Assembly: GCA_001794755.1 (NCBI GenBank)
Contig: MGKT01000002.1
Coordinates: 65,130 to 122,024, forward strand
Direction: 5' to 3'
DNA: 56,895 nucleotides
From: Candidatus Yanofskybacteria bacterium RIFCSPLOWO2_02_FULL_44_18
GTDB taxonomy: Bacteria > Patescibacteriota > Minisyncoccia > 2-02-FULL-40-12 > GWA2-44-9
How positions within the stretch are numbered: the stretch's first letter is position 1; the number at the start of each line of letters is the position of its first letter. Positions 36,121 to 56,079 of this stretch are shown in pieces. The notes below the pieces were generated by a model. The model was given only the letters and a program-made list of their open reading frames with translations. It had not been told where the DNA came from and searched no databases. A program made the position numbers and the translations under genes.

Positions 36121-36207
36121 GGTGAGATGGCTGAGTGGTCTAAAGCACCACGTTGGAAACGTGGCGTAGGGGAAACTCTACCGTGAGTTCGAATCTCACT
36201 CTCACCG
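36121..36207 (+). tRNA. tRNA-Ser(GGA)
   Basis: Acceptor GGTGAGA/TCTCACC, anticodon arm CCACG-TTGGAAA-CGTGG, long variable arm, T-loop TTCGAAT; CCA not encoded. Confidence 0.95.
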
Positions 36208-36228
36208 CCTTCGATATTTCTTATCGGA

Positions 36229-36329: not shown

Positions 36330-37043
36330 ATGGAATTTAAAGAAGCAACTAAAATTCTCGATGCCATCCTCTCCAAAAAAAATCCACCATATTTTAACAG
36401 CTCGTGGATTTTAAAAAATGCTCCAAAAGTTTATCGATTCATTTGGACAAATATCAGAACAGAAAATAGAGATATAGATTGGGATAAAGTAACTCGATCC
36501 CTTAATCACAGATTTTGGAAAAGATGGCAACATCCCAGGAAAAGACCAAAACAATACTGGGATAAAAAAGAAGTTCATCGAGTATTAAAGATATATAAAG
36601 ATAAGCTATATACATTTATAACTGCCCTAAATGACGAGGATAAATATCTTAGAGATATTATAAGCGTATCCCTGGTTAGACTAGCTCAAAATGGCAATAA
36701 ATCAGCCAGTAAAGAACTCTCTGAGTTATTACGATACACAATAGACCATTGGATAGAGTATTGCTGGAAACTCAATCGTTGGCGAGGATATGAAGACAAA
36801 ATTCAAGAAAAGATCGATTGCTGTATCCGTCGCTATCGATATACCGGATCTTTCATGGCTTATCTGTTTAAAACTCTAGAGTATTCAAGCTGGGGTTTCA
36901 GGCTATTACATAAACACTCTTTAGATGAATATATACCCGGAAGAACCGACAAAAGACGGATTGATAACGTAGTCCAAGATCCAGAAACAGGAGAAATTGG
37001 AATGTATGACAGGGCTAACCAATCTGGGATGCCGGATCTATAG
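36330..37043 (+). CDS. hypothetical basic protein, possibly sigma/regulator-like
   Basis: 237 aa; LVRLAQNGNKSASKEL resembles a sigma-factor N-terminal region. Confidence 0.6.
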   Translation: MEFKEATKILDAILSKKNPPYFNSSWILKNAPKVYRFIWTNIRTENRDIDWDKVTRSLNHRFWKRWQHPRKRPKQYWDKKEVHRVLKIYKDKLYTFITALNDEDKYLRDIISVSLVRLAQNGNKSASKELSELLRYTIDHWIEYCWKLNRWRGYEDKIQEKIDCCIRRYRYTGSFMAYLFKTLEYSSWGFRLLHKHSLDEYIPGRTDKRRIDNVVQDPETGEIGMYDRANQSGMPDL

Positions 37044-38358
37044 TAACAATTTTCTTAGTAAACTTTATCTTTGACTTGAAGCATCCCATCAATTCACGTT
37101 TCTCCTCATTAGCGCCTTCTTTGAGAATATATTTGGCATAAGTTTTTAAATCTATGTCTTTATGTTTTGTCTTCTTATCAGAAAATCCTAGAACTCCTTT
37201 TTGGAACTTATTAAATCTTTTAAGTTCATCCTCAAATTTAATCTGTATTCCGGAATTGTTAAAATCAATTTGGTCTAGGAGCTTAATTAGCTGATCTATC
37301 AAATCTTCTTCTCGCAGGTACTCGTTTTTACAATGTCTATCCTTAGATCTGCCACAGCCATAGTATATGTATTTAGCTGTAGTCCCATCCTTAAGCTGTT
37401 TATACTTCTCCTCGGCTGATATCATTGAGCTACATAAGCCGCAGACCATTAATTTGGTAAAGGCGAATTCATGGCTGGTCCTAATAATATTATCCCTTTT
37501 AAGCTGTTCTTGGACTTTATCAAATAGCTCTTTATCGATAACCGGTTCATGTTTACCCTGGTACCATTGATTACTCTTTTTAGGATATTCGAAGATTCCG
37601 TAATAGAAAGGATTTTGAAGCATCCTAAATATATTGCTTAGAGCCATATTATGGTTGCCCACCGATTTGAAGTTTAATTCAAACTTAAGCCAATGATGTA
37701 TCTTTCTGCCCGACCATTTCTCATGAGCCATTTTCTCAAATATCTTTTTAACAATCGGCGATCGATCAGGATCTAGGATCACCTGGCACTTTTTGTCCAT
37801 GTGCTTTTGATTTAAGTATCCTATTGGGGCCACTCCCGGCCAGAGGCCCATCTCAACTCTTGTCCGTAGTCCTCTCTTTACGTTAATACCCCGGTTATCG
37901 TTTTCTAATTTAGCTTGAGAGCCTAGTATCATAAGAAGGAACTTCTCATTTGGATTATTTGAGAATCTTTGACCATATGTTCTGATTTCTTTTAAGATCC
38001 CCGCATCCATAAGATCTACTATCTTTCCTAAGTCTCCTGCATTTCTAGATATACGATCTGGTGCCCAGGTTAATATGCCGTCAAACTTATTCTGCTGAAT
38101 ATCCAGTATTATCTCGTTGAAGATTGGTCTTTGGCCTGTTTCTTTAGCTGAATGAGACTCTCTTTTTACCGTAACGATCTCCAATTGCTCTCTTTCGGCC
38201 AAAAGGAGCATCTCCTTGATCTGACTATCAATAGAGAGTATTTGTTTTTCTTCTGATTCTGATGATTTCCTGGCATAGAGGCAATACCTTACCTTTGCTG
38301 GTATTGCCTGTGGCTGGGTCCCTGAAAGCCCTTGGATATTGTGATTATTCATATACAC
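37015..38358 (-). CDS. large serine recombinase (resolvase + recombinase + zinc ribbon)
   Basis: YCLYARKSSE..Q..SIDSQ, ESHSAK..RP, DRISRN, APIGY, NPFYYG, CGLC...YYGC. Confidence 0.93.
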   Translation of the reverse strand: MYMNNHNIQGLSGTQPQAIPAKVRYCLYARKSSESEEKQILSIDSQIKEMLLLAEREQLEIVTVKRESHSAKETGQRPIFNEIILDIQQNKFDGILTWAPDRISRNAGDLGKIVDLMDAGILKEIRTYGQRFSNNPNEKFLLMILGSQAKLENDNRGINVKRGLRTRVEMGLWPGVAPIGYLNQKHMDKKCQVILDPDRSPIVKKIFEKMAHEKWSGRKIHHWLKFELNFKSVGNHNMALSNIFRMLQNPFYYGIFEYPKKSNQWYQGKHEPVIDKELFDKVQEQLKRDNIIRTSHEFAFTKLMVCGLCSSMISAEEKYKQLKDGTTAKYIYYGCGRSKDRHCKNEYLREEDLIDQLIKLLDQIDFNNSGIQIKFEDELKRFNKFQKGVLGFSDKKTKHKDIDLKTYAKYILKEGANEEKRELMGCFKSKIKFTKKIVTIDPASQIG

Positions 38359-38449: not shown

Positions 38450-38594
38450 AACAACCTAATGACCTAAACCCGGTGACTTCATTGGGCATGGCACAAAACC
38501 ACCTGCATACCAAACTTGTCGTTTGGCTTCCACGCATGTGGTTATAGAGGAAACTCTATAAAAGAGCTTATGCTCTAAGCCAGGCGACTTTTTT
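38450..38594 (+). ncRNA. unidentified structured RNA, copy A
   Basis: Promoter TGGATT-N17-TAGAAT (38416-38444); helices covary with copy B; ends in a T tract at the RT stop. Confidence 0.65.
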
Positions 38595-39727
38595 TATTGT
38601 TTGTTTAGCCGAAAGAAGATCTGGTTTTCAAGGTCTTGTTGAAGAATAAAAGAATTACTATGGCTTAAGATCCCCAGATAAGAATGGATGGTATGGTCAA
38701 GTGAGTCATAAGACAATGATCCTTGATTATACGATTTAATTTTTTCGTAAATCTTGGCAAAAATTCTTTTCTCGGTTTTTATCCTTGGCAGTATGAAGTG
38801 TGGGAAACAAACATATCCAAGGAAATCAACGCCTTGGCTTAATTTTCGAACCGTAATTTTATTGGGATGTAATTCAAGTTTCAACCTATCTTTCAGAAAA
38901 TCTTTTATTAAATCCTGGATTTCAAAACAATGCTCTCTTTGAGGATGAAGTATCACAAAATCATCGGCGTAACGAATGTAATGTTTTTCGTGAAGTTCGT
39001 GCTTCATAAACTGGTCGAGCTCATTGAGATAAATATTGGCAAAAAGTTGCGAGGTCAGGTTGCCTATCGGCAATCCCTTAGGCTCACTGGGATCTACTGT
39101 ACGATCCGAACTAAAACTAGATATAACTTCCTCAAGAAGTCGTCGAGTGTGTATGCTCCTAATACGTCCGAAAATTATATCTATGAGAATTTTTTGATCA
39201 ACACTTGCAAAAAACTTTCTGATATCACATTTCAAAATCCAACATGGCTGAGTATTGTTTTTGCTGACTATTCTTGCGTATCGGATAAGTTGTTCCACAC
39301 CACGATGAGTTCCTTTATCTTTTCGACACGAATAGGAATCATGGATAAAAGTTTTATCAAAGATTGGATTAACATGCTTAACGATGGCGTGATGGAGTAC
39401 ACGATCTCTAACCAGGGCTTTGTGGATGTGGCGTAGTTTTGGGTCTTGCACGAAAAATGATGTATATCCGGAATGCTTGTAAGTTTTATCGGCCAGCTCT
39501 TGATGAAGCTCCCAAAGATTATCTTCTAAATTGCGTTCAAACTCTATAGTATCCAGCCGGTCCTTTTTGCCAATTCTAAATTCTTTCCAAGAGGTGATTA
39601 AATTATCGATCTTAACTATTTCGTCAAAAAGATTATGAACAACCATAAAAATACTGGACAGTTTAATTTGGAAACTCCGATCTTCAAAAAGACATACGAC
39701 TTTTTGAAAGAATTCTACATTTTTCAA
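38594..39727 (-). CDS. DGR reverse transcriptase
   Basis: PKLRHI, RDRVLHHA, SYSCRKDKGTH, KCDIRKFFAS, GLPIGNLTSQLFAN (DGR-type SQ), YIRYADDF, GVDFLGY; likely start ATG 39646. Confidence 0.96.
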   Translation of the reverse strand: MKNVEFFQKVVCLFEDRSFQIKLSSIFMVVHNLFDEIVKIDNLITSWKEFRIGKKDRLDTIEFERNLEDNLWELHQELADKTYKHSGYTSFFVQDPKLRHIHKALVRDRVLHHAIVKHVNPIFDKTFIHDSYSCRKDKGTHRGVEQLIRYARIVSKNNTQPCWILKCDIRKFFASVDQKILIDIIFGRIRSIHTRRLLEEVISSFSSDRTVDPSEPKGLPIGNLTSQLFANIYLNELDQFMKHELHEKHYIRYADDFVILHPQREHCFEIQDLIKDFLKDRLKLELHPNKITVRKLSQGVDFLGYVCFPHFILPRIKTEKRIFAKIYEKIKSYNQGSLSYDSLDHTIHSYLGILSHSNSFILQQDLENQIFFRLNKQ

Positions 39728-40015
39728 TTAGACTTTCCAAAGAAAGATCGCTACAGCCTGGGACAACGATGTGAGACTTATCTGCTCGGCGTACTTGAGG
39801 GTATCATGCTTGCCAGCCAGACGAGTAAAGATAGGAAATATCTTATTCTTCAGCAGGCCAGTGGCAAGTTAGATATGCTTAAGGTTTTCGTGAGATTAGC
39901 CGGGGACATCAAGATTCTCAGCGATAGCCGATACATAAAGTGTCAGAATCAAATTCAAGAAATCGGTAAGATGCTGGGTGGCTGGATGAAGTCTACCCAC
40001 GAAGATCAGTTTTAA
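39635..40015 (+). CDS. avd: DGR accessory variability determinant (four-helix bundle)
   Basis: PIFKKTYD..FPKKDRYSLGQR..EIGKMLGGW; lies between TR and RT. Confidence 0.88.
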   Translation: MNNHKNTGQFNLETPIFKKTYDFLKEFYIFQLDFPKKDRYSLGQRCETYLLGVLEGIMLASQTSKDRKYLILQQASGKLDMLKVFVRLAGDIKILSDSRYIKCQNQIQEIGKMLGGWMKSTHEDQF

Positions 40016-40054
40016 CTATCAGGCCTTCTCTAAGAGAAGGCCTGATAGTTAAAA
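40010..40054. repeat. perfect 21-bp inverted repeat just 3' of the TR
   Basis: TTTTAACTATCAGGCCTTCTC-TAA-GAGAAGGCCTGATAGTTAAAA. Confidence 0.9.
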
Positions 40055-40067
40055 AACGACGATACTG

Positions 40068-40184
40068 CCGAGAGGGGCAGACACCGAGATTCGAATTCGC
40101 ATTGTCGCGGGAATCGTTGTTCACGTTGAGACCGTCCGAGTCGAAGTTGCCAACGTTGACGGAGTTACCGTCGGAAGACTGCAC
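40068..40184 (-). ncRNA. DGR template repeat (TR), 117 nt
   Basis: Differs from the three VRs only at its adenines; 24 A in 15 codons, 9 of them AAY. Confidence 0.97.
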
Positions 40185-40565
40185 CGATATGTTTTATTCC
40201 CTCCATGAGCGCTCCATAGCCACTGGGGATTATCAAAAGATTCTCCCCTGAATTTTACCTGGTAGCAGTCCTTTGATTTACGCAGGACATCTACGCTGAA
40301 ATAAAACACGTAGTTTCGTAGTTTTTACTACTTTCCGGCCACGCCACTTCTTATAGCCAGGGCCATAAGAACTCCGGTGGATATCAAAAAGAGGAGGTTC
40401 GTAAGATTAAACTAGCCTGAGCCGAGCTTAATCTCTATTAACAAAGCTCAGTAATATTGTTGCATAAAATACCCGGTTATAAAAGGACTGGTAAAATTCT
40501 ATTTTTGACTGTATATTTATGTAATAAAGTTCCGACTACACCACTTGTGGTGAGTTTATTGAACC

Positions 40566-41393
40566 ATGCCATTTGAAGCCTACAAAATCTACGAAGAATA
40601 CGAGCCGGATAAGTTCAAAAACTCGACTCAGAAAAAAGTTGAGCAGGCTTTAGATACCGCTAAAAAAGAAGGGCTAGTACCCGAGGCTAAAGAAACCAAT
40701 ATCGAATTCGATGAAGCTCGAGAAATATTTGGCAAAGACTTCTTGGGGCCAGAAGCAATTCAAACCACTTTCGGCGTTGAATTAACCCCAGACGAACTCA
40801 AAGAAGTAGAAGATATTCCTTTTACCAGAGAAGAGCTGGAACAAGCCAAGCAATTGGGTATGATGTTGGTTCTAAGAGTGCCCAGACTCGGTGAAGGCAA
40901 AACAGAGCGTCCTCTAACAATTGATTCTGCCAGAGAACTATTTAACAAGGGCGATTCCCTTGGCGATCCTAAGAAAAAGAAACAAAAAGTATTTTATGGC
41001 AAAAAGGGCGAGAGCTGGTATGATAATGAAAAATTTGCGACCCAAGACACTCCTAAGCTTGGTTGGGGTTTAGTTATGAAATCGGTATTACCTGATTCAC
41101 TAAGTAAAAACTGGAACCAGCAAGAGGAAGTTCTTAAGAAATGGGCAAAGGATAACAACATAAACCCCAGTCTTGTTAAGAGAAGGACACCCGTAGAAAT
41201 TGCCTACGATACCCTGATATATTACGGTGAGAATAAGGAGTCATTGTTAGAGAATAGGTACGACTGGTCCGGCGTGCAGTCTTCCGACGGTGGCTCCGTC
41301 TACGTTGGCGGCTTCGACTCGGTCGGTCTCGGCGTGCGCTTCGATTCCCGCGACGGTGCGAGTTCGTATCTCGGTGTCTGCCCCTCTCGGTAG
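40566..41393 (+). CDS. DGR target protein 1 (CLec-like fold, C-terminal VR)
   Basis: VR at the 3' end; YDWS motif before the VR and terminal GVCPSR; paralogous to targets 2 and 3. Confidence 0.92.
   Translation: MPFEAYKIYEEYEPDKFKNSTQKKVEQALDTAKKEGLVPEAKETNIEFDEAREIFGKDFLGPEAIQTTFGVELTPDELKEVEDIPFTREELEQAKQLGMMLVLRVPRLGEGKTERPLTIDSARELFNKGDSLGDPKKKKQKVFYGKKGESWYDNEKFATQDTPKLGWGLVMKSVLPDSLSKNWNQQEEVLKKWAKDNNINPSLVKRRTPVEIAYDTLIYYGENKESLLENRYDWSGVQSSDGGSVYVGGFDSVGLGVRFDSRDGASSYLGVCPSR
41274..41390 (+). repeat. variable repeat VR1
   Basis: 16 mismatches to the TR, all at TR adenines. Confidence 0.97.
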
Positions 41394-41460
41394 TTTCGAG
41401 ATACTTGGGCACTTGGATTCCTTGATTCTTATTGGTTTCCTTGGGTATTCGAAAATTTTT
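41394..41460 (+). repeat. conserved post-VR element 1 (IMH-associated)
   Basis: TTTCG...(CTTGG/CTTGA units)...TTCGAAAA, shared with the elements after VR2 and VR3. Confidence 0.75.
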
Positions 41461-41502
41461 TGAGGGCTGGTAAAATACCATTTTTAATTGTAATATCCAT
41501 AT

Positions 41503-43176
41503 ATGTCTAAAGAGCAAATCCCACATATTCCCAATGTTCTAACTACTCCGGAAAGGGTAATGGAGGAACATGGGCTAGATGAGTCAAAAGAGAAGGTAAA
41601 ACTTTCTCCGGAACAGGTTGAAACTAATGTTAATGAGCTAACGGAGCTTTCTGCTTCTCGTGCCGAAGCTTCTAAGCATGTTCGTGAGTCATATGGCGGT
41701 TTAACCAAATCTGAACGGGAAGAACTTAAAGAAAAAGGAGAAGGTGCCGTGGTGGCCCAGCTCGATGCATTAAATATTGATCCAGAATTAGCCGAGTTTT
41801 CTGAGGGAGTTTTGGCTGACTATGATAAGAGGATTCAAGAATTGGGTAGTAACCCGAAAGTTCTAGAGGAATATAAGAAAAGATTCGAGAAACTTAAAGG
41901 AACCTTAGGTAATGTCGTGGCGTATGAGCATATTCAAGGTGAGCTAGATGCTGTTACTAAGAGCGAGCAAAAACTCCGATTGTTATATGAAAAAGTCGGC
42001 CGTGCACCTGGTCCGATTGAGAAGAAAAAACTAGCTGAACTAACAGAACACAAAAATACTCTTCAAGAACAATTAAATAAGTTTGAATTAGATCCGGCTT
42101 CTGTCGGCATGCTACGGCGTAGAGAAGTCAGAAAAATGCAACAAGATCTTGAACGATATAGTTTTGCCGAAACAGAGTCCCGAACCGAACTAATCAGAGA
42201 AGTTTTGCCCGACCTCATGCAGGGCGCCCCGATTCTTTTTCAAGGTGAAACTGGTTCCGGTAAATCTCAACTAGCAAAATATATTTCCGAACGATATCTG
42301 GGCAAAGAACCGGTTATTATTTCGGTCAGTGAACAGATCAAGGAATCACAGATTATGGGTACCCGCGGATTAGAAAACGGAGAGACTGTCTTCAACTATT
42401 CTGAGTTTATCAAAGCTCAACAAGATGGACGACCGGTAGTACTTGATGAGGTGAATCTTATGCCTCACGAATTCTCCGGTCTTTTGCACGATCTTTTGCA
42501 GAAAAGAGTCGGCGATGTCTGGACTCACCCTGTTACAGGAGAAGCAATCAAAATTACCGCCCCTATCATGGCTACTGCCAACCTTAAGTCAGAACGCTAC
42601 AAACAGCGTTATGAGTTAGACGTGGCAACTCTCCGAAGATTCATCGGCGGAGCCGGAGCAAGAGAAATCCATTATTTGGACTTAGGCGAGAAAGACAAGG
42701 AAGGTAATTATATCGCTCCCGAAACATTAAAAATCCTAGCTTCAGTAATAGCCGATAGAAATGGCAATATTTCTTGGAGCGTCGGGGAAGCTCCACAGAA
42801 AATGGAACAGCTCAAAAGATTCGTTCAGGCTTGCCGTAAAATTCAAGAAGATTTTACCTTGAGTGTTCGGGAAGGTGCTGAAGAATCGTTAGCCAAAAGT
42901 GACCGCCTAGCTTTTAGAGAGTTGGTCATCACTCTTAAGGATCAAATTGAGATTATGAAGGCCTGGAAAGCGTCTGGTTTTCAAGAACCTTTAGACCAAA
43001 TCGTCTTGAAGGAATTCTTCCGAAAAGCTGAAATAAGCGGACGGGCAGCCAAAGACAGAGAGAATATGGTCAAGGTATTCATGGCTAATAAGTTTTTCCA
43101 AGACACTAAACCTGAAGATTTTAATATCCAAGGCCTTTCGGCTAAAACAGTTCGCCAATGGCAAGGAAAAGAATAA
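41503..43176 (+). CDS. MoxR-like AAA+ ATPase (AAA_5 type) with N-terminal coiled coil
   Basis: GETGSGKS, VVLDEVN, ATANL, LDVATLRRF. Confidence 0.88.
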   Translation: MSKEQIPHIPNVLTTPERVMEEHGLDESKEKVKLSPEQVETNVNELTELSASRAEASKHVRESYGGLTKSEREELKEKGEGAVVAQLDALNIDPELAEFSEGVLADYDKRIQELGSNPKVLEEYKKRFEKLKGTLGNVVAYEHIQGELDAVTKSEQKLRLLYEKVGRAPGPIEKKKLAELTEHKNTLQEQLNKFELDPASVGMLRRREVRKMQQDLERYSFAETESRTELIREVLPDLMQGAPILFQGETGSGKSQLAKYISERYLGKEPVIISVSEQIKESQIMGTRGLENGETVFNYSEFIKAQQDGRPVVLDEVNLMPHEFSGLLHDLLQKRVGDVWTHPVTGEAIKITAPIMATANLKSERYKQRYELDVATLRRFIGGAGAREIHYLDLGEKDKEGNYIAPETLKILASVIADRNGNISWSVGEAPQKMEQLKRFVQACRKIQEDFTLSVREGAEESLAKSDRLAFRELVITLKDQIEIMKAWKASGFQEPLDQIVLKEFFRKAEISGRAAKDRENMVKVFMANKFFQDTKPEDFNIQGLSAKTVRQWQGKE

Positions 43177-43995
43177 ATGCCATTTGAAGCCTACAAAATA
43201 TACGAAGAATACGAGCCAGATAAGTTTAAGACCACTACTCAAAAGAAAGTTGAGCAAGCTCTCGATACTGCTAAGAAAGAAGGGCTAGTTCCCGAGGCAA
43301 AAGAGGCCCACGTTGAATTTGAAGAAGCCAAAGAAATATTTGGAGCAGATTTTCTCGGTCCCGAATCTGTCGGGACAACATTTGGCGTTGAATTTTCTCA
43401 AGAAGAACTTAATCAGATAGAAAATATCCCATTTACTCGTGAAGAATTAGAAAAAGCCAAAGAGCTTGGAATGATGCTGGTCTTACGCGTGCCAAGAGTT
43501 GGCAAGGATAAAACCGCCAAGCCACTTACGATCAAGCAAATGAGAGGCGTATTCAAGGGAGAAGATAAGCTCGGTGATCCTAAAAAGAAAAAATCTCAAA
43601 TCTTCTACGATCAGGATTGGTATAACAAAGAAGAATTCGCCACCAAAGACACGCCATCTCTTGGTTGGGGTCTTGTTATGAAGAAAATACTAGAAGAATC
43701 AAGAAGTAAAAACTGGGATCAGCAACAAGAAGTACTTAAAAAGTGGGCAGAGGAAAACGGCATTGACTCCACTTCAATTAAACGCCGAACTCCGGTTGAG
43801 ATAGCTTATGATACGCTTCTTTATTATGGCGCGAATAAAGAGTCCTTGTTATCAGATACTTGGGATTGGACTGGCGTGCAGTCTTCCGACGGTCACTCCG
43901 TCTACGTTGGCTTCTTCGGCTCGGTCGGTCTCGTCGTGTACAGCGGTTCCCGCGGCGGTGCGTATTCGAGTCTCGGTGTCTGCCCCTCTCGGTAG
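43177..43995 (+). CDS. DGR target protein 2
   Basis: Paralog of target 1; VR2 at the 3' end. Confidence 0.92.
   Translation: MPFEAYKIYEEYEPDKFKTTTQKKVEQALDTAKKEGLVPEAKEAHVEFEEAKEIFGADFLGPESVGTTFGVEFSQEELNQIENIPFTREELEKAKELGMMLVLRVPRVGKDKTAKPLTIKQMRGVFKGEDKLGDPKKKKSQIFYDQDWYNKEEFATKDTPSLGWGLVMKKILEESRSKNWDQQQEVLKKWAEENGIDSTSIKRRTPVEIAYDTLLYYGANKESLLSDTWDWTGVQSSDGHSVYVGFFGSVGLVVYSGSRGGAYSSLGVCPSR
43876..43992 (+). repeat. variable repeat VR2
   Basis: 16 mismatches to the TR, all at TR adenines. Confidence 0.97.
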
Positions 43996-44066
43996 TTTCG
44001 TAGGGTACTTGGGAGCTTGGACTCCTTGATTCTTATTGGTTCCCTTGGGTATTCGAAAAAAATTTT
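43996..44066 (+). repeat. conserved post-VR element 2
   Basis: Same CTTGG-unit element as after VR1. Confidence 0.75.
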
Positions 44067-44082
44067 ATATAACCACATCTAA

Positions 44083-46071
44083 ATGCCAGAATCATTTCCC
44101 ATAAATAGAATAGAAGCTCCTCAAGACGAACCTAAGCCAGAGGTTCCAAAACAGGAAAACGAGATTGACGCTCAAGCAGTTGAGGAATTTTTAAATAAGG
44201 AAACCGAAATATTAGGAGCCTATGGATTGCGAGGCGATATTACCTTAGAACGAGGTAACGGTGGCTGGGCATTTGATTTTCAAAACAGAAAACTCATCTA
44301 TGATCCAAAATTCTTCATAGAACGTGGCTATAGCCTCCAGGAAACTCTCTTTGCCACCACTCATGAACTCATGGCTCACTACGGTGAGCTAATGCGTGAT
44401 CCGGAGCTTGTTTTAAAGGAAGCCAAACGATATAGCGCCAAAGGCCACCTTCATCTTTTATACAATATCTTTGAAGATGTGCTGGGTAACAGACGTATAG
44501 TTGCCGAGCTACCGTTCTTAGAAGAAACCCGGGAGCAACTTTACCGAGAAAAGATGTTTCCACCGACTGACTACACCGACAAATCTTCCCACGTTCAATT
44601 TACTTACGGCTTTATCCGCCAGATGATGGTGCCCGGTGAAGCGGTACAGCTTGGTCCAGAAGCTCAGACCGCTTTGGATAAATTAAGAAGCTTTGGCTCA
44701 GATAAAATAGATATTCTCGATCTGGTCACTACTCCAACTATTGATCCTAAAGATCGCTTTCGAATCATGCGGACAATTGTTGAACCTATTTATCGAGAAC
44801 TTTATGAAAAAGATTTGGAAGAAGAGAAGAAAAGTGGCAAGAGCAAGGATCAGGGCGAAGGATCACCCACAGACACTAAAGTTTCTGACAAACCGCAACA
44901 AGGCCAAGGTTCAGGTCAAGAGAAGAAAAAATGGTGGCAAAGAAAAAAGGAAGAACCTCAAGAAGGAAAAGGTAAAGAGCAACAACCTGGTAAGGGCGGA
45001 GATAAGAAATCCAGCGAGCGAGCCGCTAGAGAAGCGGCTGAAAAGAAGTTTAAGAAAGAATATAAGACCTATCACGATGGTCATCCCGAACCCATAACAC
45101 ATGCAGAAGAAAAACAAATCAAGAAGTTGATGGAAGAAATAGTCGCTAAAAAGGGCGGACAACCTACTCTTGAACAAAACATTCTTGAGGAATGGGCCCG
45201 TGAGCATGGAGTCAGCGCTGAGGATGTTCTCGGCTATCGCAAAGAGTATGAAGAGATTGCTCCCCTGGTGGCCGAGCTAAGAGAAGTTTTTAAAAAGATA
45301 ATTGCTAGACGGTTAAAAGAACGCTGGCAATTTTCGCCTCAGCTTAAAACAGAAGGTGAGGAGCTAGCCGAGGATACATTAGTCGACTCTTCAATTGAAT
45401 CACGAGCTGGAGGCCAACCGAGAGCGTTTAGAGAGATTGAAAGGCACAAGAGAGAACAGGAAGGCTATGGCATGCTGGATATGTCTTTGGTTAATGATTT
45501 ATCCGGCTCGATGAATGAGGGTGGCAAACTTGAAATGGACCGTAAGAGTAAGCTGTTATTCTTAGAGTCTCTGGCTGATTTTCAAAAAGAAATAGAAGAA
45601 GCTGAATTTGAAAGTGGTGTTTCATTAGGCCTGCAAGTTAGAACCGAAACCAGAGCGTTTGGTGACTTTGGAGATGTAGAATTAAAATCGTTATCACCCG
45701 ATTTATCGGAGAAAGACAGGATTGGGATTTGGAAAAAAATGCATAAAGCCGGTGGCGGTACGCCAGATTATCTTTCTCTTGAAGAAGTTCTTAATTCAAT
45801 AACTCCAGAACAAGAAAAGGAGTTAAGAGATAAGTCAAGAAGAAAAGTTATCGTCGTACTTTCTGATGGTGAGAGTCAAGATTCAGGCAAAGTTCAAGCT
45901 GTTTTACTCCAGCTAAGAAATAGAGGGGTTATATGTTTAGGATTGGGCATGACTGAATCAGGTCAAGCCGTCAAAGAAACATACAAGCCGGATGCCGAAG
46001 TAATAACAGATATCAAAGAGTTGCCACAAGCAGTTCAAAAAGTTATTCTAAAATATACTCAAGATCTATAA
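44083..46071 (+). CDS. vWA (MIDAS) protein with N-terminal metallopeptidase-like domain and charged linker
   Basis: THELMAH and YNIFED; MIDAS NDLSGSM, GGGTPD, VVLSDGE. Confidence 0.85.
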   Translation: MPESFPINRIEAPQDEPKPEVPKQENEIDAQAVEEFLNKETEILGAYGLRGDITLERGNGGWAFDFQNRKLIYDPKFFIERGYSLQETLFATTHELMAHYGELMRDPELVLKEAKRYSAKGHLHLLYNIFEDVLGNRRIVAELPFLEETREQLYREKMFPPTDYTDKSSHVQFTYGFIRQMMVPGEAVQLGPEAQTALDKLRSFGSDKIDILDLVTTPTIDPKDRFRIMRTIVEPIYRELYEKDLEEEKKSGKSKDQGEGSPTDTKVSDKPQQGQGSGQEKKKWWQRKKEEPQEGKGKEQQPGKGGDKKSSERAAREAAEKKFKKEYKTYHDGHPEPITHAEEKQIKKLMEEIVAKKGGQPTLEQNILEEWAREHGVSAEDVLGYRKEYEEIAPLVAELREVFKKIIARRLKERWQFSPQLKTEGEELAEDTLVDSSIESRAGGQPRAFREIERHKREQEGYGMLDMSLVNDLSGSMNEGGKLEMDRKSKLLFLESLADFQKEIEEAEFESGVSLGLQVRTETRAFGDFGDVELKSLSPDLSEKDRIGIWKKMHKAGGGTPDYLSLEEVLNSITPEQEKELRDKSRRKVIVVLSDGESQDSGKVQAVLLQLRNRGVICLGLGMTESGQAVKETYKPDAEVITDIKELPQAVQKVILKYTQDL

Positions 46072-46072
46072 T

Positions 46073-46900
46073 ATGCCATTTGAAGCCTACAAAATCTACG
46101 AAGAATACGAGCCGGATAAGTTCAAAAACTCGACTCAGAAAAAAGTTGAGCAAGCTTTGGATACTGCTAAAAGAGAAGGTCTTGTGCCTGAAGCCAAAGA
46201 AGTAAACATTGAATTCGATGAAGCTAGAGAGATATTTGGTAAAGATTTCCTTGGTCCGGAAGCTATTAAAACAACATATGGTATCGAACTTACTCCAGAC
46301 AAGCTACAAGAAATTGAGAACATACCATTTACTAGAGAGGAATTAGAACAAGCAAAACAATTGGGAATGATGCTGGTACTTAGGGTGCCGAGTATTGGTG
46401 AGGGCAAGGAAGCTAAGCCCCTAACTATTGATCAAATACGAGAGAAGTTTTCAGGCGGAGATACGCTAGGTGATCCTAAGAAAAAGAAGAAGAAAATGTT
46501 TTATCGAAGCAAGGGTGATGGGTGGTTTGATACGGAAAAGTTTGCTCTCGAAGGAACTCCCAAACTTGGCTGGGGCCTAGTAATGAAATCTGTTTTGCCG
46601 GACTCATTGAGCAAGAATTGGGATCAACAAGAAGAAGTACTCAAAAACTGGGCTAAGCAAAATAACATTGATCCAACGTTAGTTAAACGCAGAACACCTG
46701 TAGAAATTGTCTATGATACTTTTCTCTACTACGGAGAAAATAAAGAAACTCTATTAGAAGATACCTGGGACTGGACAGGCGTGCGGTCTTCCGGCGGTTT
46801 CTCCGTCTACGTTGGCGGCTTCGACTCGGACGGTCTCGGCGTGGGCGGCGGTTCCCGCGGCCGTGCGGATTCGAATCTCGGTGTCTGCCCCTCTCGGTAG
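46073..46900 (+). CDS. DGR target protein 3
   Basis: Paralog of targets 1 and 2; VR3 at the 3' end. Confidence 0.92.
   Translation: MPFEAYKIYEEYEPDKFKNSTQKKVEQALDTAKREGLVPEAKEVNIEFDEAREIFGKDFLGPEAIKTTYGIELTPDKLQEIENIPFTREELEQAKQLGMMLVLRVPSIGEGKEAKPLTIDQIREKFSGGDTLGDPKKKKKKMFYRSKGDGWFDTEKFALEGTPKLGWGLVMKSVLPDSLSKNWDQQEEVLKNWAKQNNIDPTLVKRRTPVEIVYDTFLYYGENKETLLEDTWDWTGVRSSGGFSVYVGGFDSDGLGVGGGSRGRADSNLGVCPSR
46781..46897 (+). repeat. variable repeat VR3
   Basis: 18 mismatches to the TR, all at TR adenines. Confidence 0.97.
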
Positions 46901-46971
46901 TTTCATAGGGTGCTTGGGCACTTGGATTCCTTGATTCTTGTTGGTCCCCTTGGGTTTTCGAAAAAATTTTA
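46901..46971 (+). repeat. conserved post-VR element 3
   Basis: Same element as after VR1 and VR2. Confidence 0.75.
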
Positions 46972-47066: not shown

Positions 47067-47222
47067 AACAATTCATTGCCTAACCCCATTGATACCCTCA
47101 GTGGATATGGCATAAAACCCACCTGCATACTGAACCCGTCGTTCAGCTCCATGCAGGTGGTCCATATCCGAAAGGGTATGGGAGGGCGCAAGCCCTCGGC
47201 TAGCGGCGGGCTTTGTGTTTTT
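47067..47222 (+). ncRNA. unidentified structured RNA, copy B
   Basis: Promoter TGGACG-N17-TAAAAT (47032-47060); GAAA and GCAA tetraloop hairpins; covaries with copy A. Confidence 0.65.
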
Positions 47223-48046: not shown

Positions 48047-50152
48047 CTACTCATCATAACTACGCGCGCCGCCTTCGTATTCACATCTTGCGACATACAG
48101 AGGTTGAACATATGGTCTTCTAAGCTCAATCTCACGTTCACGGCTAAATGTTAACGCCAAAGCATCAATGGCATCTGGCGAAGAGAGGCCGTCATGCATC
48201 ATCTCATCTCTTGTCTTTACCCCAATCTTTTTATCCCCATGTACCTTATACTGCACCTGAGATAGTTGATTAAAAGCATTGTTTTCCAGAAGAACCAGAT
48301 TTTTTTCAATCCAGTTTTTGAGACGCCAACAACTTTGGGATCGAAGATTAATGAAATTCTTGCCATCATTTTCTGGAAACTCAGGTTCACTGCCCGGTTT
48401 AACTGCCACTACTTTCTGGGCTATATACCAGTTGTGGTTATCCAGCTGATTACGAAGCAACTCATACACTTCTTCACCAAGACCAAAAGTCTCCACAAAT
48501 ATATTCGATGGCTTAATATTAAATCGTTTTACGAGTTCAATAACTTGGTCGGCAATGACCGTAGGGTTAGCATGAGCATCCTGATACATAACCTGACCAC
48601 TGATAGCGGCTTTAAGCACGATCGTAGAAAACATACGTCCAGCACCTGTCGTGACCACTCCAATACGGAATGGCTCTGTCCATCGTTCCATCTTTGATAT
48701 GTATGCTTGCTCCATCCGTTCCTTAGTTAGCAGATATGAGTATTCATCAATGGCAGTATCTTTTTCAAATACTTTAATAACGAGTGTGGTAAACGCGTCG
48801 ATAAGATCGTCGTGTCGTTCTCTACCAAAGCCTAAGATCTGGTTGATGAGAATTTCGGCCCCTTGTCTAGGAAAGAGTACCTTAGCAGATTGAATAGCCG
48901 GAGCAGTCATGATCAATCGGGTCCGCTTATCATTCCCTCCAATTTTGAACTCCTCGGCTGGGAAGCCTTCGTCTCTTAACTGCTGAAAAAATGCCGATTG
49001 ATATGCAACCGATTCAATAAATAAATGGGCATATTCCATACTTCTTGATAGCTGCTTAGCTTGTTGAAGAGCAGTCGGAAAATCAAAGCGTTTATTAATA
49101 GGATTCGGCAAGATATATATCTTGAGATTATCTCGGGTGCCATACACTCGGGCAGAAATCATGGCCGTGAAATCAGCACTATTAGATTCACTGATTGCTA
49201 GATCAATACCAATACCGGTAAAGCGATAATCCAACGAACCAACATCCGGTAGGGTATCGTAATACTGAATCCATTCAGGATGGATAACCTGGTCATCATC
49301 CGGCAGAATATTGAGCATGAATTCTCGCTGAAAGGCACGTTCATCCATGGTGCGCTTAAGATCATCAATACTTTTATGATTTGGAAACTTTCCCGGCCAA
49401 GTGACTTGCTCGTTCTCATCAATCAAGGGATACCTTCGATATATGCCATCAAACTTTTTGCTTTTGATGTTCTGGATGAGTTTCATTAGAAGTGAGTCAT
49501 TATGGAGAAGATTGCCGATGATGATAATCCGAGTATGTAAATCACCGGCTGGAATGACATCGCCATTGAACCAAGCGAATAGCTTGTCCCGAGATTCCTG
49601 TGTTTTAACTGACTCAAGATCTTCTAAGTCATCTCCAATAATGAGGTCGGGGCGGTATTGGCCATGCCGGATACCGCGGATACTTTGCTCGGTAGAAGAA
49701 GCAAGGATCTTTGCACCATAGCGTGGGATGACTAACGCAAGCGAGCCCCACTCGTCCGTTTCTTCTTTGAACGGTCCCAAATCCATTTTTAGGAGGATAT
49801 TAGTTTCCAACTCTTTCTTGATATTTAATAGATGTTGACGAGCTTGGCGTTGGGTCTGGCTGGCAATGACGATTAATTTTTTTTGCTGATCACCAAGTAT
49901 CGCCCACAGCGGATACGACAAATTGAATATGGTGGACTTTGCCGAATTACGGAATGCAATGATGACCGCATTCTTGATCTTGGCGTTTTCAGTAATACGA
50001 AAGAAGTCCGTATGGAATGGCGCCGCTCGACTTTTGATATAGTGATTTAGATAGATAGCGAAAAACCATTCATGACTTTGACGAGCTATATCTCTCCGGA
50101 CTTTTCTATCATGAATGATTTTATTAACTAATTTTTTTGATGGTTTTTTCAT
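48047..50152 (-). CDS. phage terminase large subunit-like protein
   Basis: AFRNSAKST, IRGIRHGQYRPDLIIGDDLED, IIGN, FQREFM, IGIDLA, HDDLIDA. Confidence 0.85.
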   Translation of the reverse strand: MKKPSKKLVNKIIHDRKVRRDIARQSHEWFFAIYLNHYIKSRAAPFHTDFFRITENAKIKNAVIIAFRNSAKSTIFNLSYPLWAILGDQQKKLIVIASQTQRQARQHLLNIKKELETNILLKMDLGPFKEETDEWGSLALVIPRYGAKILASSTEQSIRGIRHGQYRPDLIIGDDLEDLESVKTQESRDKLFAWFNGDVIPAGDLHTRIIIIGNLLHNDSLLMKLIQNIKSKKFDGIYRRYPLIDENEQVTWPGKFPNHKSIDDLKRTMDERAFQREFMLNILPDDDQVIHPEWIQYYDTLPDVGSLDYRFTGIGIDLAISESNSADFTAMISARVYGTRDNLKIYILPNPINKRFDFPTALQQAKQLSRSMEYAHLFIESVAYQSAFFQQLRDEGFPAEEFKIGGNDKRTRLIMTAPAIQSAKVLFPRQGAEILINQILGFGRERHDDLIDAFTTLVIKVFEKDTAIDEYSYLLTKERMEQAYISKMERWTEPFRIGVVTTGAGRMFSTIVLKAAISGQVMYQDAHANPTVIADQVIELVKRFNIKPSNIFVETFGLGEEVYELLRNQLDNHNWYIAQKVVAVKPGSEPEFPENDGKNFINLRSQSCWRLKNWIEKNLVLLENNAFNQLSQVQYKVHGDKKIGVKTRDEMMHDGLSSPDAIDALALTFSREREIELRRPYVQPLYVARCEYEGGARSYDE

Positions 50153-50537
50153 GTTTATTTTTAGGCGATGAAGATACTAATCTCAAGGCCTGTTTAATGA
50201 GAGCTTCTTGCTCTGGGGTTAATTTTTCGGATGAATGTTTAAGGTGACCGCTAATTTCTAAGCGATCTGTATAGGTAGTATGATGGTTCTTGAGCCAGTA
50301 TATGACAGCAGTCATATTTTTGTCTCTGATTGCAGAAATAAGCTGGGACTCGGCCATATCATTTATCAGAAGAGATCCTTCGCTTAAAGCTTCGTCCGAA
50401 GCTTTCGCAAATTCTGTATCGCTTTTTCGCCAACGATAATATGTCATGCGACTGATACCAAGTTTTTCACAAGCTATTTGTACAATGGGAGTCTTTTTAA
50501 GTTGTTCGAGCAATAATGCTTTTTGATCTTTTTTCAT
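50124..50537 (-). CDS. HTH protein, probable terminase small subunit
   Basis: IVQIACEKLGISRMTYYRWRKSD, AESQL..AVIYWLK; directly upstream of TerL. Confidence 0.75.
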   Translation of the reverse strand: MKKDQKALLLEQLKKTPIVQIACEKLGISRMTYYRWRKSDTEFAKASDEALSEGSLLINDMAESQLISAIRDKNMTAVIYWLKNHHTTYTDRLEISGHLKHSSEKLTPEQEALIKQALRLVSSSPKNKHEKTIKKIS

Positions 50538-53475: not shown

Positions 53476-56079
53476 TTAAATTGGTAACCATTTTTTAGTT
53501 TTTCTTGTTTCTTTTTTTCTAGGCTCTAGTAATCCTATAAGCTGAGTGATGAGGGCTTTATTCTGTTCATCTACCGTTTTATCTTCGATATTTTTAATCT
53601 CCCTTAGCAGGGTGCTTCTAGTTCGTTGACTTGAAACTATGTAGTCAACTGATTTAATGAGTTCTTCTAATTTTGAAAGGATATAAAAACGTCTTTGTTC
53701 ATTCCCTGAACCTAGTTGTTTGGCCAAGCTTTCTAAAAAGGGAATCAATCTATCCCCGAACTCTTTTTTCATATCTGGGTGGAATATGGCATTAACAATT
53801 TGATCAAGATCAGCATCACTGGCTTTTTTGGCATTATCAATATAAATTTCTACAAACTTATTAAAATCAATGTCTGGGAGATTGACTCTTGACTGTATCA
53901 TACCTGCCACAAAGACTTGGTCAGCCACATTCGTGCCACTGGCAATAGTAAACAATGCAGCCTCAATCTCGTTAATTCTTGCTGAAGTAATATTACCTCG
54001 AAACTGGTTAATCAAGTCTATCACTAGCTCTTTTTGATTGTTGGCCTTATTCTTTAGTGCTTCGACAAGATTGTGTTGGATGGTCTCAGATTCAGTGAAT
54101 CTCTCTGGAAACAACTTCTTTATAAAACCTAGTGCAGCATCAAAGTCTTCGTCAGACCCTGTCAGTTTTTCTGCTATCAAGTTTTCGAATCCCTCAGCGA
54201 TTTCGGGAGTTAAAGACTTTTGCTCAGCGATAAATGCATTTATAATCTGGCTTCTTGTGGGAGCATCGATGAACGGAGGTTCTTTTACTAAGACGTCAGC
54301 TGATTCTTTATCAATAAAAGGTAGTATCTTTTCGATATCTATAGACTGTAAAGCTGCCAATTCTGTAGCGTACTTTTGTCGCGAGATAACCAATAACTCT
54401 TTTATTCTCTGAAGACGTAGTCGTGGTTCTTCCAATAGAGATACTGCGTGAAATAAGCTTCTTATGATGTTAATTTTTTCTGGTGCTTGAGTTTGTACTA
54501 AATCATACTCAGCTTTGATGCCTTCTATGTAAGAGTTCCTGGGAAGATCGGTCAGTCCTGTAATAATTTTTGTCAGATTTTCGATGTCACCATTTTTGGC
54601 CAGTGCCTTTATCTCTGTCGGATCAACTGTTCTAGTCTCCGTAAATCCGGTTGATCCAGAAAAGTGTAGGAAATAATAGGGATCAATTGTTTTTTCTTCT
54701 TCAGATCGGTTTATCGAATTAAAGAATTTCGGCTCTTGGGCTATGAGCTTTTGTAGATCCTTATCTTCTGCTATCTCGCCGCTCTCATATCCCTGAAGAA
54801 GCTTTGGCTCGTTGGGTAATTTTTCATAGAAATCTGGAAAGCGATCTTGAATAATCAATATCTTGCCTAACAACTCCGGAGAGTTTTTAACTTTAACTAG
54901 ATTTGTATATTCTTGACTATTCTTGTTTGCGATACTATTCAGCTTTCCTTGGACAGCTTCTAGCTGGAAAAACAGGGTTCTAAGAAAATGCTTTATCTTT
55001 CTCGGATTACTATCAAAATTATTTAGTGCCAAGTCGATAAGATACTCCTTGGCGTATGGATGAGTAAAATTGAGAACTGACGTTGCATCGATCATCTGAT
55101 TTACCCATGGCCCTAAGACATCCTTTGTAGCTTTTGGCAGAATAAAGTTAATCTGAAATATCTTTTTTAAATACTCGGTTGCTTCCTTCTGTTTGACCTC
55201 GGTAGTTTTCTTTATATCCACTAACCCCGTAGTGTCGTTAAGCTCAGGATCAAGATTCAGAAAATTACTAATATAGCGACGAATTACTGTATGGTCAGCA
55301 GTAATCACATACACGCAATGAGGATTATTGAAAAACGTAAATAGAGCTGTAAGTATCTGCTCGACTTCTTTGTGATTACAACGATCAAGATCGTCCACAA
55401 AGATAACTATCCGTTTGGGCGGATTCCCCGACGCCATCAGTTCTTCAACGACCTCATTAAATTTATCTTCGAACTGCTCGGCCGATTCTATTTTAGGGAT
55501 TATCTGTTTGACCTTTATTTCTGTGACCTTTTGTATTACTGGTATAAAAGCAAGGAAAATAGGAAGTAAAAGATTATTAAGAAGAGTTTGAGTTACATTG
55601 AGGCGTACTCCCAATATATGTTTTAGTGACCATACAACAACTACAAATCCCATACCCAAGAGAAAGGCGTGCTTTAGAAAGATATTTATTTGTCGTGTAA
55701 ATATGTCATCATACTCTTCTTTTGTTAAATCCTTATCTTTCTGGATTTCGGCATAAAATTCTCCGTGATCAATTTTCTTATCGAGTTGAGAGTATATGTC
55801 AATAATAAATTTTCTTTTTATAGAGATTTCATCTTGTGTGTATTTCCACGGCTCAAACTTAAGAACTTTATAATTTAGAGCTTCTAGCTTTGGTTGGAGT
55901 TGCTGCAATATGGATGACTTGCCCTCGCCCCATCTTGCTGATATTCCGAAGTTGAAACCTTCATCAGAGTCTTCGATTGTTTTAACAATGGCGTCTACAA
56001 ACGGCTCTCTACCAAAGAGATCATTTTTTGCTGGGTTATCCCACTTGCTTACACCGTGAGTTTTATCGGACTGTATCAT
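53476..56079 (-). CDS. KAP family P-loop NTPase
   Basis: DLFGR, ARWGEGKS, FEPWKY, two TM helices inserted in the NTPase, IFVDDLDRC, EYLKKIFQINFILP, NPRKIK. Confidence 0.9.
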   Translation of the reverse strand: MIQSDKTHGVSKWDNPAKNDLFGREPFVDAIVKTIEDSDEGFNFGISARWGEGKSSILQQLQPKLEALNYKVLKFEPWKYTQDEISIKRKFIIDIYSQLDKKIDHGEFYAEIQKDKDLTKEEYDDIFTRQINIFLKHAFLLGMGFVVVVWSLKHILGVRLNVTQTLLNNLLLPIFLAFIPVIQKVTEIKVKQIIPKIESAEQFEDKFNEVVEELMASGNPPKRIVIFVDDLDRCNHKEVEQILTALFTFFNNPHCVYVITADHTVIRRYISNFLNLDPELNDTTGLVDIKKTTEVKQKEATEYLKKIFQINFILPKATKDVLGPWVNQMIDATSVLNFTHPYAKEYLIDLALNNFDSNPRKIKHFLRTLFFQLEAVQGKLNSIANKNSQEYTNLVKVKNSPELLGKILIIQDRFPDFYEKLPNEPKLLQGYESGEIAEDKDLQKLIAQEPKFFNSINRSEEEKTIDPYYFLHFSGSTGFTETRTVDPTEIKALAKNGDIENLTKIITGLTDLPRNSYIEGIKAEYDLVQTQAPEKINIIRSLFHAVSLLEEPRLRLQRIKELLVISRQKYATELAALQSIDIEKILPFIDKESADVLVKEPPFIDAPTRSQIINAFIAEQKSLTPEIAEGFENLIAEKLTGSDEDFDAALGFIKKLFPERFTESETIQHNLVEALKNKANNQKELVIDLINQFRGNITSARINEIEAALFTIASGTNVADQVFVAGMIQSRVNLPDIDFNKFVEIYIDNAKKASDADLDQIVNAIFHPDMKKEFGDRLIPFLESLAKQLGSGNEQRRFYILSKLEELIKSVDYIVSSQRTRSTLLREIKNIEDKTVDEQNKALITQLIGLLEPRKKETRKTKKWLPI

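Follow-up and report, generated by a model that had tools for sequence, protein, structure and literature searches.

A complete diversity-generating retroelement with one template and three target genes in a Candidatus Yanofskybacteria genome

In order to follow up a preliminary description made from sequence alone, we analysed a 56,895 nt stretch of the genome of Candidatus Yanofskybacteria bacterium RIFCSPLOWO2_02_FULL_44_18 (assembly GCA_001794755.1, contig MGKT01000002.1, forward strand, positions 65,130–122,024). This whole stretch is referred to below as the window, and all coordinates are window positions. It carries a diversity-generating retroelement (DGR) in which a single template repeat (TR) serves three target genes, T1, T2 and T3, each ending in its own variable repeat (VR1–VR3). 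We conclude that the locus is very probably a complete, intact DGR of the type known in the Candidate Phyla Radiation (CPR; Patescibacteria), and that it has recently acted on all three of its targets. We regard the DGR as complete because a reverse transcriptase (RT), the accessory protein Avd, target proteins with a predicted lectin fold and a sequence difference of the kind that separates an initiation of mutagenic homing site (IMH) from its template counterpart (IMH*) are all present. The coordinates of these and all other features are collected in Table 1.

In each target the VR makes up the final 39 codons of the open reading frame (ORF), and the reverse complement of positions 40068–40184 aligns to these 117 nt, directly preceding the stop codon, without a gap. 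The TR differs from VR1, VR2 and VR3 at 16, 16 and 18 positions, respectively, with 50 of 50 mismatches lying at TR adenines and no difference at any of the 279 non-adenine sites compared (3 × 93). With 24 adenines among 117 nt, the hypergeometric probability that every mismatch falls on an adenine is 3.7e-14 for VR1, 3.7e-14 for VR2 and 2.0e-16 for VR3. All 24 adenines occupy codon position 1 or 2 and are distributed over nine AAY codons and six codons with a single adenine, which gives each target a coding capacity of 4^24 = 2.8e14 DNA variants and 15^9 × 4^6 = 1.6e14 protein variants, a stop codon being impossible. At the 72 adenine-templated positions of the three VRs the bases found were G (32), A (22), T (15) and C (3). 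The 3' end of the TR is a tract of 21 nt without adenine, after which the TR continues with CAGTATC and all three VRs with TAGTTTC; we take these heptamers to be an IMH*/IMH pair with a putative role in homing. The preliminary description had reported the length of the TR, the number and codon positions of its adenines, the mismatch counts and their restriction to adenines, the 4^24 variants and the adenine-free tract ahead of the heptamer difference, and every one of these figures was reproduced. Its central claim, of a complete DGR with one TR for three paralogous genes, is likewise upheld, as all the defining parts are present and intact. It had also proposed that the genome be searched for remote VRs; we did so across the 631 kb assembly (nine contigs) and found no further VR of the window TR. 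The only other match to the TR, on contig C4 of the assembly, was considered as a remote VR and rejected, since it serves as the template of another DGR, distinct from that of the window.

The preliminary description had further suggested recent activity at all three targets, and this is supported indirectly by the way in which the paralogs differ. Whilst their scaffolds are 70–74 % identical to one another, identity reaches 100 % at the 93 non-adenine VR sites and falls to 33–42 % at the 24 adenine sites. The same cassette occurs in four related genomes (G005, G003, G021 and G057), and 20 TR positions vary among the five TRs; in each of the five genomes the non-adenine states of the TR are mostly followed by that genome's own VRs, with few exceptions. 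At TR position 17, the window TR and all three of its VRs have T, whereas C is found in the other six TRs compared (four from the related genomes, two from metagenome contigs). All three VRs were therefore rewritten after that mutation of the TR had arisen. Diversification is also visible across homologues: when T1 was aligned with those of the 120 homologues listed that share its length of 275 aa (38 proteins, 39 with T1), the mean entropy was 2.31 bits at the 15 adenine-templated codons, 0.22 bits at the other 24 VR codons and 0.41 bits in the scaffold.

A DGR with these properties could nonetheless be a fossil, one that worked until recently and is now silent, its VRs persisting as frozen alleles. 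VR variation was compared on assembled contigs of four (X5, X8, X11 and X12) of the 20 metagenome runs found, a kind of data that does not yield allele frequencies. Several observations weigh against recent action at all three targets, and some of them favour a fossil. The X5 contigs carry VR1, VR2 and VR3 with 0 differences from the window and thus display no variation. Elsewhere, TR and VRs disagree at sites other than adenine: in G005, whose TR is near-identical, every one of the three VRs shows three or four such mismatches, two VRs of G021 and a single VR of G003 show one apiece, whilst in G057 the first four positions of one VR differ from its TR. Cassettes of this type can thus fall out of step, perhaps through exchange of the TR module, and the VRs of G005 look like examples of stale repeats. 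Against a fossil in the window itself stand the RT, avd and all three targets, which are open and full length, the absence of any non-adenine difference, and the T at position 17, present in all three VRs and in no other TR compared. In addition, the X8, X11 and X12 contigs begin at 41369–41371, 1–3 nt past the last adenine-templated site of VR1 (41368), as would fit branching of the assembly graph at variable sites, although this is only a hint. When the metagenome contigs were scanned with the adenine-free tract and IMH/IMH*, only five loci were recovered (two TRs, two whole VRs and one cut VR), a number too small for analysis at the population level. Taken together, we consider it quite unlikely that the element is silent.

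Two further explanations concern the pattern itself. Ordinary gene conversion between the paralogs, rather than retrohoming, might have made the non-adenine VR sites identical. The paralogs do recombine, given that G021 is without the ATPase gene and T2 and that contigs of X11 and X12 omit T1 together with the ATPase gene, and the 5' 135 nt of the three target genes are also nearly identical. Conversion would have homogenized the adenine sites as well, however, and these differ as described above; moreover, the homogenized block stops exactly where the homology to the TR ends. As such, this explanation is highly improbable. The other possibility is that the layout with three copies arose in assembly, from a repeat that was collapsed or expanded, which the conserved 5' and 3' ends of the target genes, and the joining of paralogs in some contigs of other runs, might suggest. 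This, too, we hold to be very improbable: the gene order (T1, ATPase, T2, vWA, T3) recurs in G005 and G003, two independent genomes, one-to-one orthologues in these genomes are 84–89 % (T1), 72–92 % (T2) and 83–93 % (T3) identical, and the X5 contigs tie each VR to its own unique scaffold. The window assembly is supported because these contigs cover T1 with VR1, T2 with VR2 and T3 with VR3 without a single difference. Recent retrohoming into all three targets remains our reading of the VRs.

The enzyme of the element is readily identified. The RT matches the Pfam family RVT_1 (E 5e-24) and the PHROG profile phrog_1423 (E 4.9e-108); its best solved relative is a 328 aa reverse transcriptase (8ub7_A, E 6.7e-45), which we take to be the enzyme of phage BPP-1, and the best group II intron RT follows at 1.5e-18. 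It has the sequence IGNLTSQ at residues 221–227 and YADD at residue 253, the motif [ILV]GxxxSQ being a mark of DGR RTs. Alignments to the PHROG profile and to 8ub7 begin at residues 27–31, and the RT ORF of the paralogous DGR on contig C4 has 350 aa; for these reasons translation probably starts at an ATG that lies 12 nt inside avd on the other strand. Avd is recognized by NCBIfam DivGenRetAVD (88.2 bits, cut-off 80), by Pfam bAvd (E 2.2e-20; 73.6 bits, cut-off 40) and by phrog_3206.

The TR and RT are on the minus strand, the three targets and avd are on the plus strand, and avd sits between TR and RT, a point that the preliminary description did not state. Of the 62 genomes of the bacterial family, 43 have a DGR-type RT (E ≤ 1e-30). 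At 21 of 22 further RT loci, avd is on the strand opposite the RT and next to its 5' end, and the remaining locus is cut by the end of its contig; the inverted avd is therefore the norm rather than an oddity. The second DGR of the same 631 kb genome (C4, 39858–41960; locus L022, 7859–10704) has this layout too: its RT is 47 % identical to that of the window, avd is on the opposite strand, and a TR and one target of 286 aa are present, with 14 mismatches within the repeat, all of them at adenines. The order TR-(avd)-RT corresponds to architecture B3, which in the accessible text of Wu et al. 2018 (PMC5758913) makes up 90 % of the CPR set, the brackets being taken, from the legend to its Figure 5, to denote opposite orientation. 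As far as the accessible portions of that paper and of Roux et al. (10.1101/2020.04.01.020958; clade 2) describe them, CPR DGRs of the B3 type have the same order of TR, avd and RT. In the former, their targets likewise appear without recognizable domain or transmembrane segment. Set against what these sources report, the window copy shows no essential difference; it has three targets, interleaved with ATPase and von Willebrand factor A (vWA) genes. The DGR thus adds nothing new in kind, as this layout, multiple targets and targets linked to an ATPase have all been published for CPR DGRs, and such elements are known to be common in ultra-small groundwater bacteria.

Compared with the DGR of BPP-1 (mtd-VR, avd, TR, brt), the window element shares adenine-specific differences between TR and VR, AAY codons, the adenine-free 3' tract, the IMH/IMH* difference, Avd and a lectin-fold target. 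It differs in that avd is inverted and placed between TR and RT, and in that BPP-1 has one tail-fibre target whereas the window has three targets that we read as cytoplasmic.

Table 1. Features of the DGR locus and its surroundings in the window
Feature	Position	Strand	Remarks
tRNA-Ser (GGA)	36121–36209	+	ARAGORN; Rfam tRNA 61.8 bits; likely integration site
Large serine recombinase/integrase	37015–38358	-	Resolvase, Recombinase, Zn_ribbon_recom; phrog_95 E 2.8e-64
LOOT RNA copy 1	38461–38577	+	RF03000, 51.2 bits (gathering 46.4); 17 nt from RT stop codon
DGR reverse transcriptase	38594–39727	-	ORF permits 377 aa; 350 aa from likely ATG at 39646; RVT_1, phrog_1423
avd accessory gene	39635–40015	+	126 aa; start overlaps 5' end of RT gene; DivGenRetAVD, bAvd, phrog_3206
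Long hairpin directly 3' of TR (predicted)	40014–40050	-	overlaps avd stop codon
IMH*-like TR flank	40061–40067	-	CAGTATC; differs from TAGTTTC after all three VRs
Template repeat	40068–40184	-	117 nt, 24 A
Folded conserved leader of TR RNA (predicted)	40189–40319	-	upstream box pairs with sequence just 5' of TR and with IMH* region
Target T1	40566–41393	+	275 aa; VR1 41274–41390 (+)
IMH of VR1 (putative)	41391–41397	+	TAGTTTC
Conserved element 3' of VR1	41404–41461	+	CTTGG-type direct repeats, then TTCGAAAA(T)n; repeat family D4
MoxR-like AAA+ ATPase	41503–43176	+	557 aa; stop abuts T2 start; AAA_5
Target T2	43177–43995	+	272 aa; VR2 43876–43992 (+)
Conserved 3' elements of VR2, VR3	44008–44065, 46913–46970	+	same repeat family
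vWA protein	44083–46071	+	662 aa; N-terminal HExxxH domain, C-terminal MIDAS; stop 1 nt before T3 start
Target T3	46073–46900	+	275 aa; VR3 46781–46897 (+)
LOOT RNA copy 2	47077–47197	+	RF03000, 83.9 bits (gathering 46.4)
Terminase large and small subunit genes	48047–50537	-	phrog_38 E 1.7e-80; small-terminase PHROGs

For the RNA that carries the template, we aligned the TRs of the five genomes together with 160 nt of upstream and 100 nt of downstream flank. A highly conserved box lies about 135 nt upstream of the TR and is predicted to pair with the 5' flank of the TR and with the IMH* region. Directly 3' of the TR is a predicted hairpin of 16–21 bp that is maintained by compensatory changes, with 4 of the 16 pairs of its helix (helix 13) changed on both sides among the five genomes. 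Over the whole predicted structure, 17 pairs are changed on both sides, compared with 7.8 ± 1.7 in shuffled alignments (0 of 500 reach 17) and 1–4 in slid controls. Two points tell against the fold: the structure was predicted from the same five sequences that were used to test covariation, and helix 1 is unpaired at one position in the window genome and in G005. In BPP-1, as far as the accessible account of its DGR RNA goes (10.1101/2023.10.23.563531), the TR is closely followed by a stem-loop, and a duplex joins distal sequences from its upstream and downstream sides; the same stem-loop position and the same upstream–downstream pairing are predicted in the window. By analogy, the 3' hairpin may correspond to the stem-loop that Avd binds in BPP-1, and we regard it as a candidate. 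In many other DGRs of the family (L051, L055, L056, L058, L061 and L039) a short GC-rich hairpin and then a run of T come after the TR, resembling an intrinsic terminator; in the window, unlike in these, T precedes the long hairpin and A follows it. Scans for promoters and terminators gave counts near background (22 versus 14.6 ± 3.9 and 9 versus 7.8 ± 2.6 in shuffled sequence, respectively).

A further conserved element was found immediately beyond the targets. Each VR is followed by a 58 nt element in which direct repeats of the CTTGG type occur four or five times, with TTCGAAAA(T)n at its end. Its three copies are 88–90 % identical, which is above the identity of the coding scaffolds; all 13 VRs of the five genomes are followed by a conserved copy, and none is found after the window TR. 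The same asymmetry is seen more widely: for 19 further TR/VR pairs of the family, pre-selected for having at least 80 % of their mismatches at adenines, the 80 nt stretches beyond the VRs contain CTTG 44 times in all and those beyond their TRs five times, against a background of 0.36 per 80 nt. Regardless of the repeat sequence, a 4-mer repeated at least four times within 60 nt follows 11 of 22 VRs (among which the three window VRs are mutually non-independent), 1 of 20 TRs and 6.2 % of random windows. Repeats are also present after VRs in loci L018–L022 and L051–L069. Judged from these sequence patterns, the CTTGG-type element may be a target-site signal of CPR DGRs, and we put it forward as a candidate. 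A hairpin or cruciform at the target is known from BPP-1 and Legionella. We considered such a structure after the IMH in the window and rejected it, as the three VR flanks fold no better than shuffled sequences (z +0.3 to +1.7); where BPP-1 has a GC-rich hairpin after the IMH, the window DGR has the direct-repeat element instead. Among the literature titles and abstracts listed we found no description of direct repeats after VRs.

With regard to the proteins that are diversified, T1–T3 matched no family in Pfam, PHROGs, NCBIfam or PADLOC, and the homologues of T1 are assigned to Candidatus Yanofskybacteria, Parcubacteria and Patescibacteria. The structural model of T1 is of good quality by its own scores (pLDDT 86.9, pTM 0.81), and by structural alignment its best match is TvpA of Treponema denticola (2y3c; Z 9.1, root-mean-square deviation 3.3 Å over 147 residues, 17 % identity), followed by domains of the FGE-like type, Mtd (Z 6.8) and TaqVP (Z 5.6). 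A Foldseek search of the PDB with the same model gave no row at E ≤ 0.001, its lectin-fold rows being weak (best E 0.08). On the strength of the model, T1–T3 are predicted to be C-type-lectin/FGE-like fold proteins that end in the VRs. The likeness of TvpA to T1–T3 in sequence is too low for any family model to match. TvpA is reported to be a lipoprotein, and in this the window targets differ, having no hydrophobic segment at the N terminus. T1, T2 and T3 hardly differ over their first 45 residues, and the N terminus is acidic. No hydrophobic segment was detected in the targets, the ATPase or the vWA protein (19-residue Kyte–Doolittle mean of the targets ≤ 1.06), a search in which no dedicated signal-peptide predictor was run.

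The genes between the targets encode a MoxR-like AAA+ ATPase and a vWA protein. The ATPase matches AAA_5 (E 6.3e-16; 59.1 bits, cut-off 22), with Walker A (GETGSGKS) at residue 248 and Walker B (VVLDE) at 312. A second MoxR-type ATPase gene (AAA_5/AAA_3) lies at 27–1232, far from the DGR, and was missed by tblastn with the cassette ATPase. The vWA protein matches Pfam VWA (26.9 bits, cut-off 23.8) and contains the motifs HELMAH and DLSGS; across 44 sequences H94, E95, H99, D472, S474 and S476 are invariant, and T560 and D595 are invariant or nearly so. By Foldseek, its vWA domain resembles the metal ion-dependent adhesion site (MIDAS) domain of Rea1/MDN1 and NorD of NorQ–NorD (E 2.6e-6 to 5e-5). 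Language-model features place its N-terminal 330 residues mostly among viral clusters, one of which is named as a metallopeptidase domain (score 0.94); from this and from the invariant HExxxH the N-terminal domain (residues 30–255) may be a metallopeptidase, which we offer as a lead only. One homologue of the vWA protein (P0204, 892 aa) also has a transglutaminase-core domain.

Several lines of evidence connect the targets with these neighbours. Three fused proteins of 887–923 aa align both to the ATPase (residues 95–555 in two of them and 201–456 in the third) and to the targets from T1 residue 45–49 onwards, and are without the N-terminal 45 residues of T1–T3. As fused relatives of this kind exist, T1–T3 probably represent subunits that can detach from an ATPase/vWA machine. 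Fusions of vWA proteins with targets were not found among 89 vWA homologues of 364–1159 aa. Complex prediction for the vWA protein with T3 lends weak support, with a score of 0.52 (individual runs 0.52, 0.54 and 0.45) against 0.00 for the best control, at least 31 % of contacts shared between runs and a partner pLDDT of at least 80; the mark for a complex is reached by 58 of 80 solved complexes and by 2 of 110 mismatched pairs, and at scores ≤ 0.60 by 7 of the 80 and by both mismatches. Since none of the five proteins has a hydrophobic segment, we read the targets as cytoplasmic recognition subunits. The proposal that they are exchangeable recognition subunits of a cytoplasmic ATPase/vWA machine is plausible, though somewhat short of an even chance, and the machine is possibly a conflict or sensor system. 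Two points count against it. The grounds for supposing that the targets bind to the ATPase/vWA proteins are gene order, the fusions and one weak complex score; and no VMAP or effector family was found in the cassette proteins (Pfam, E ≤ 0.01), a scan that a remote homologue could escape and in which the only cassette genes besides those for the ATPase and the vWA protein were the three targets.

Host attachment is the role usually suggested for the targets of cellular DGRs, and on this view T1–T3 would be secreted or surface adhesins, with the ATPase and vWA genes as unrelated neighbours. A host-attached life is assumed for CPR bacteria and the lectin fold is a ligand-binding fold, both of which speak for such a role. 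Nevertheless, the targets have an acidic N terminus and, within the limits of the search described above, no hydrophobic segment; stop and start codons abut at the ATPase/T2 and vWA/T3 junctions; fused ATPase–target proteins exist; and the gene order is retained in G005 and G003. Adhesins are therefore unlikely, and a role as recognition subunits of the ATPase/vWA machine is the reading that we carry forward.

Related arrangements have been described. In the accessible text of Dore et al. 2024 (PMC10907252), which cites Paul et al. 2017, ATPase–target fusions combine the same ATPase family with the same target domain; compared with these, the window has the ATPase and the lectin-fold protein as separate genes, and the target occurs three times and with 45 additional N-terminal residues. 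The DGR-linked vWA–MoxR(–VMAP) ternary conflict systems of cyanobacteria and gammaproteobacteria, in so far as the accessible portions of Kaur et al. 2020 (PMC7159879) and PMC10907252 present them, share their theme with the window cassette, in which a MoxR-like AAA+ ATPase and a MIDAS vWA protein are both present. Relative to those accounts, the window differs in that no VMAP or known effector domain was found, the vWA protein and the variable domain are encoded apart, the RT is of the CPR group and not of clade 5, and the host is ultra-small and not multicellular.

The cassette lies in a region with features of a mobile element. Housekeeping genes such as ftsK, recA and groEL occupy the first 36 kb of the window; from there to the end of the contig the order is tRNA-Ser, serine recombinase, LOOT RNA, DGR cassette, LOOT RNA, terL/terS, two DNA methylase genes (one fused to ParB) and a KAP NTPase gene. 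With its serine integrase and terminase at a tRNA-Ser gene, the region is probably a mobile island. Against this it must be said that the contig ends at 56895, so that the right end of the island lies beyond it; a second copy of the 3' end of tRNA-Ser was not found in the assembly. The genome has only two large serine recombinase genes. In G003, terL, terS and the methylase genes are on the RT side of the cassette, and a LOOT RNA separates them from the RT. The KAP P-loop NTPase (867 aa; 53476–56079, minus strand) matches PDC-S20, PifA and QatA in PADLOC (E 1e-19 to 1e-15) and is a possible defence gene.

Comparison with related genomes points to movement of the cassette. Identity to G005 amounts to 97 % for the vWA protein, 95.5 % for the ATPase and 97.6 % for Avd, whilst GroEL and RecA are 80–81 % and 82–83 % identical, respectively, to those of G003, G005 and G021. 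As the cassette identities are far above those of GroEL and RecA, the cassette moves between genera. In G021, which lacks the ATPase gene and T2, a 97 % identical vWA protein is paired with a 68 % identical RT, and the modules of the cassette therefore recombine. On the X11 and X12 contigs the region upstream of T1 is joined directly to the start of T2 (40542/43177), without T1 and the ATPase gene; this joint and the G021 variant indicate that the shared ends of the paralogs evidently recombine.

Both LOOT RNA copies match the full RF03000 model (positions 1–121) and bracket the DGR cassette on the same strand, and a third copy of the genome is on contig C4 (25848–25965). We considered LOOT RNA as a component of the DGR and rejected it: of 24 copies above the cut-off in the 62 family genomes, four have a DGR-type RT no more than 5 kb away and one more has such an RT at 14 kb, whilst the other 19 have no RT on their contig (E ≤ 1e-30), seven of them in six genomes without any RT match. 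A serine recombinase homologue is found within 8 kb in 16 of 20 further LOOT loci of the family, and these loci are often also near terS, terL or methylase genes. We found no paper on serine-integrase/terminase islands with LOOT RNA, and in the main text of PMC5737381 the word LOOT turns up solely as part of an author's name among the references.

These observations suggest how the element might operate. The TR would be transcribed on the minus strand within a structured RNA made up of the conserved leader, the TR and the long 3' hairpin; RT and Avd would copy this RNA into cDNA, with random incorporation opposite adenines; and the cDNA would replace VR1, VR2 or VR3. Homing would be guided by the shared adenine-free 3' tract and the IMH, possibly with the help of the CTTGG-repeat element, which is found only after the VRs. 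Each target could then take about 1.6e14 protein forms without gaining a stop codon. A broader reading, which as a whole is speculative and rather doubtful, would see here a mobile, self-diversifying intracellular recognition system of ultra-small bacteria. Three lectin-fold subunits would dock via the 45-residue N-terminal tag on a MoxR-type ATPase and a vWA/metallopeptidase-like protein, the whole being the LOOT-bracketed cargo of a serine-integrase/terminase island, with homing directed by CTTGG-type repeats in place of a hairpin or cruciform.

As a DGR, the locus is a clean, intact example in which three targets are in step with one template, and the TR variant at position 17, found only here among the seven TRs compared, dates the last rewriting. 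Since part of the VRs of its sister cassettes, which lie in other genera, no longer follow their templates, together they form a good comparative set for how frequently such elements fire. Three aspects possibly carry more weight than the DGR itself, namely the putative cytoplasmic ATPase/vWA role of the variable proteins, the probable carriage of the cassette on a mobile island and the repeat element after the VRs, a candidate, open to testing, for the signal by which CPR DGRs recognize their targets. If the targets are indeed variable subunits of an ATPase/vWA machine, diversification by this DGR would serve recognition within the cell, and not attachment.

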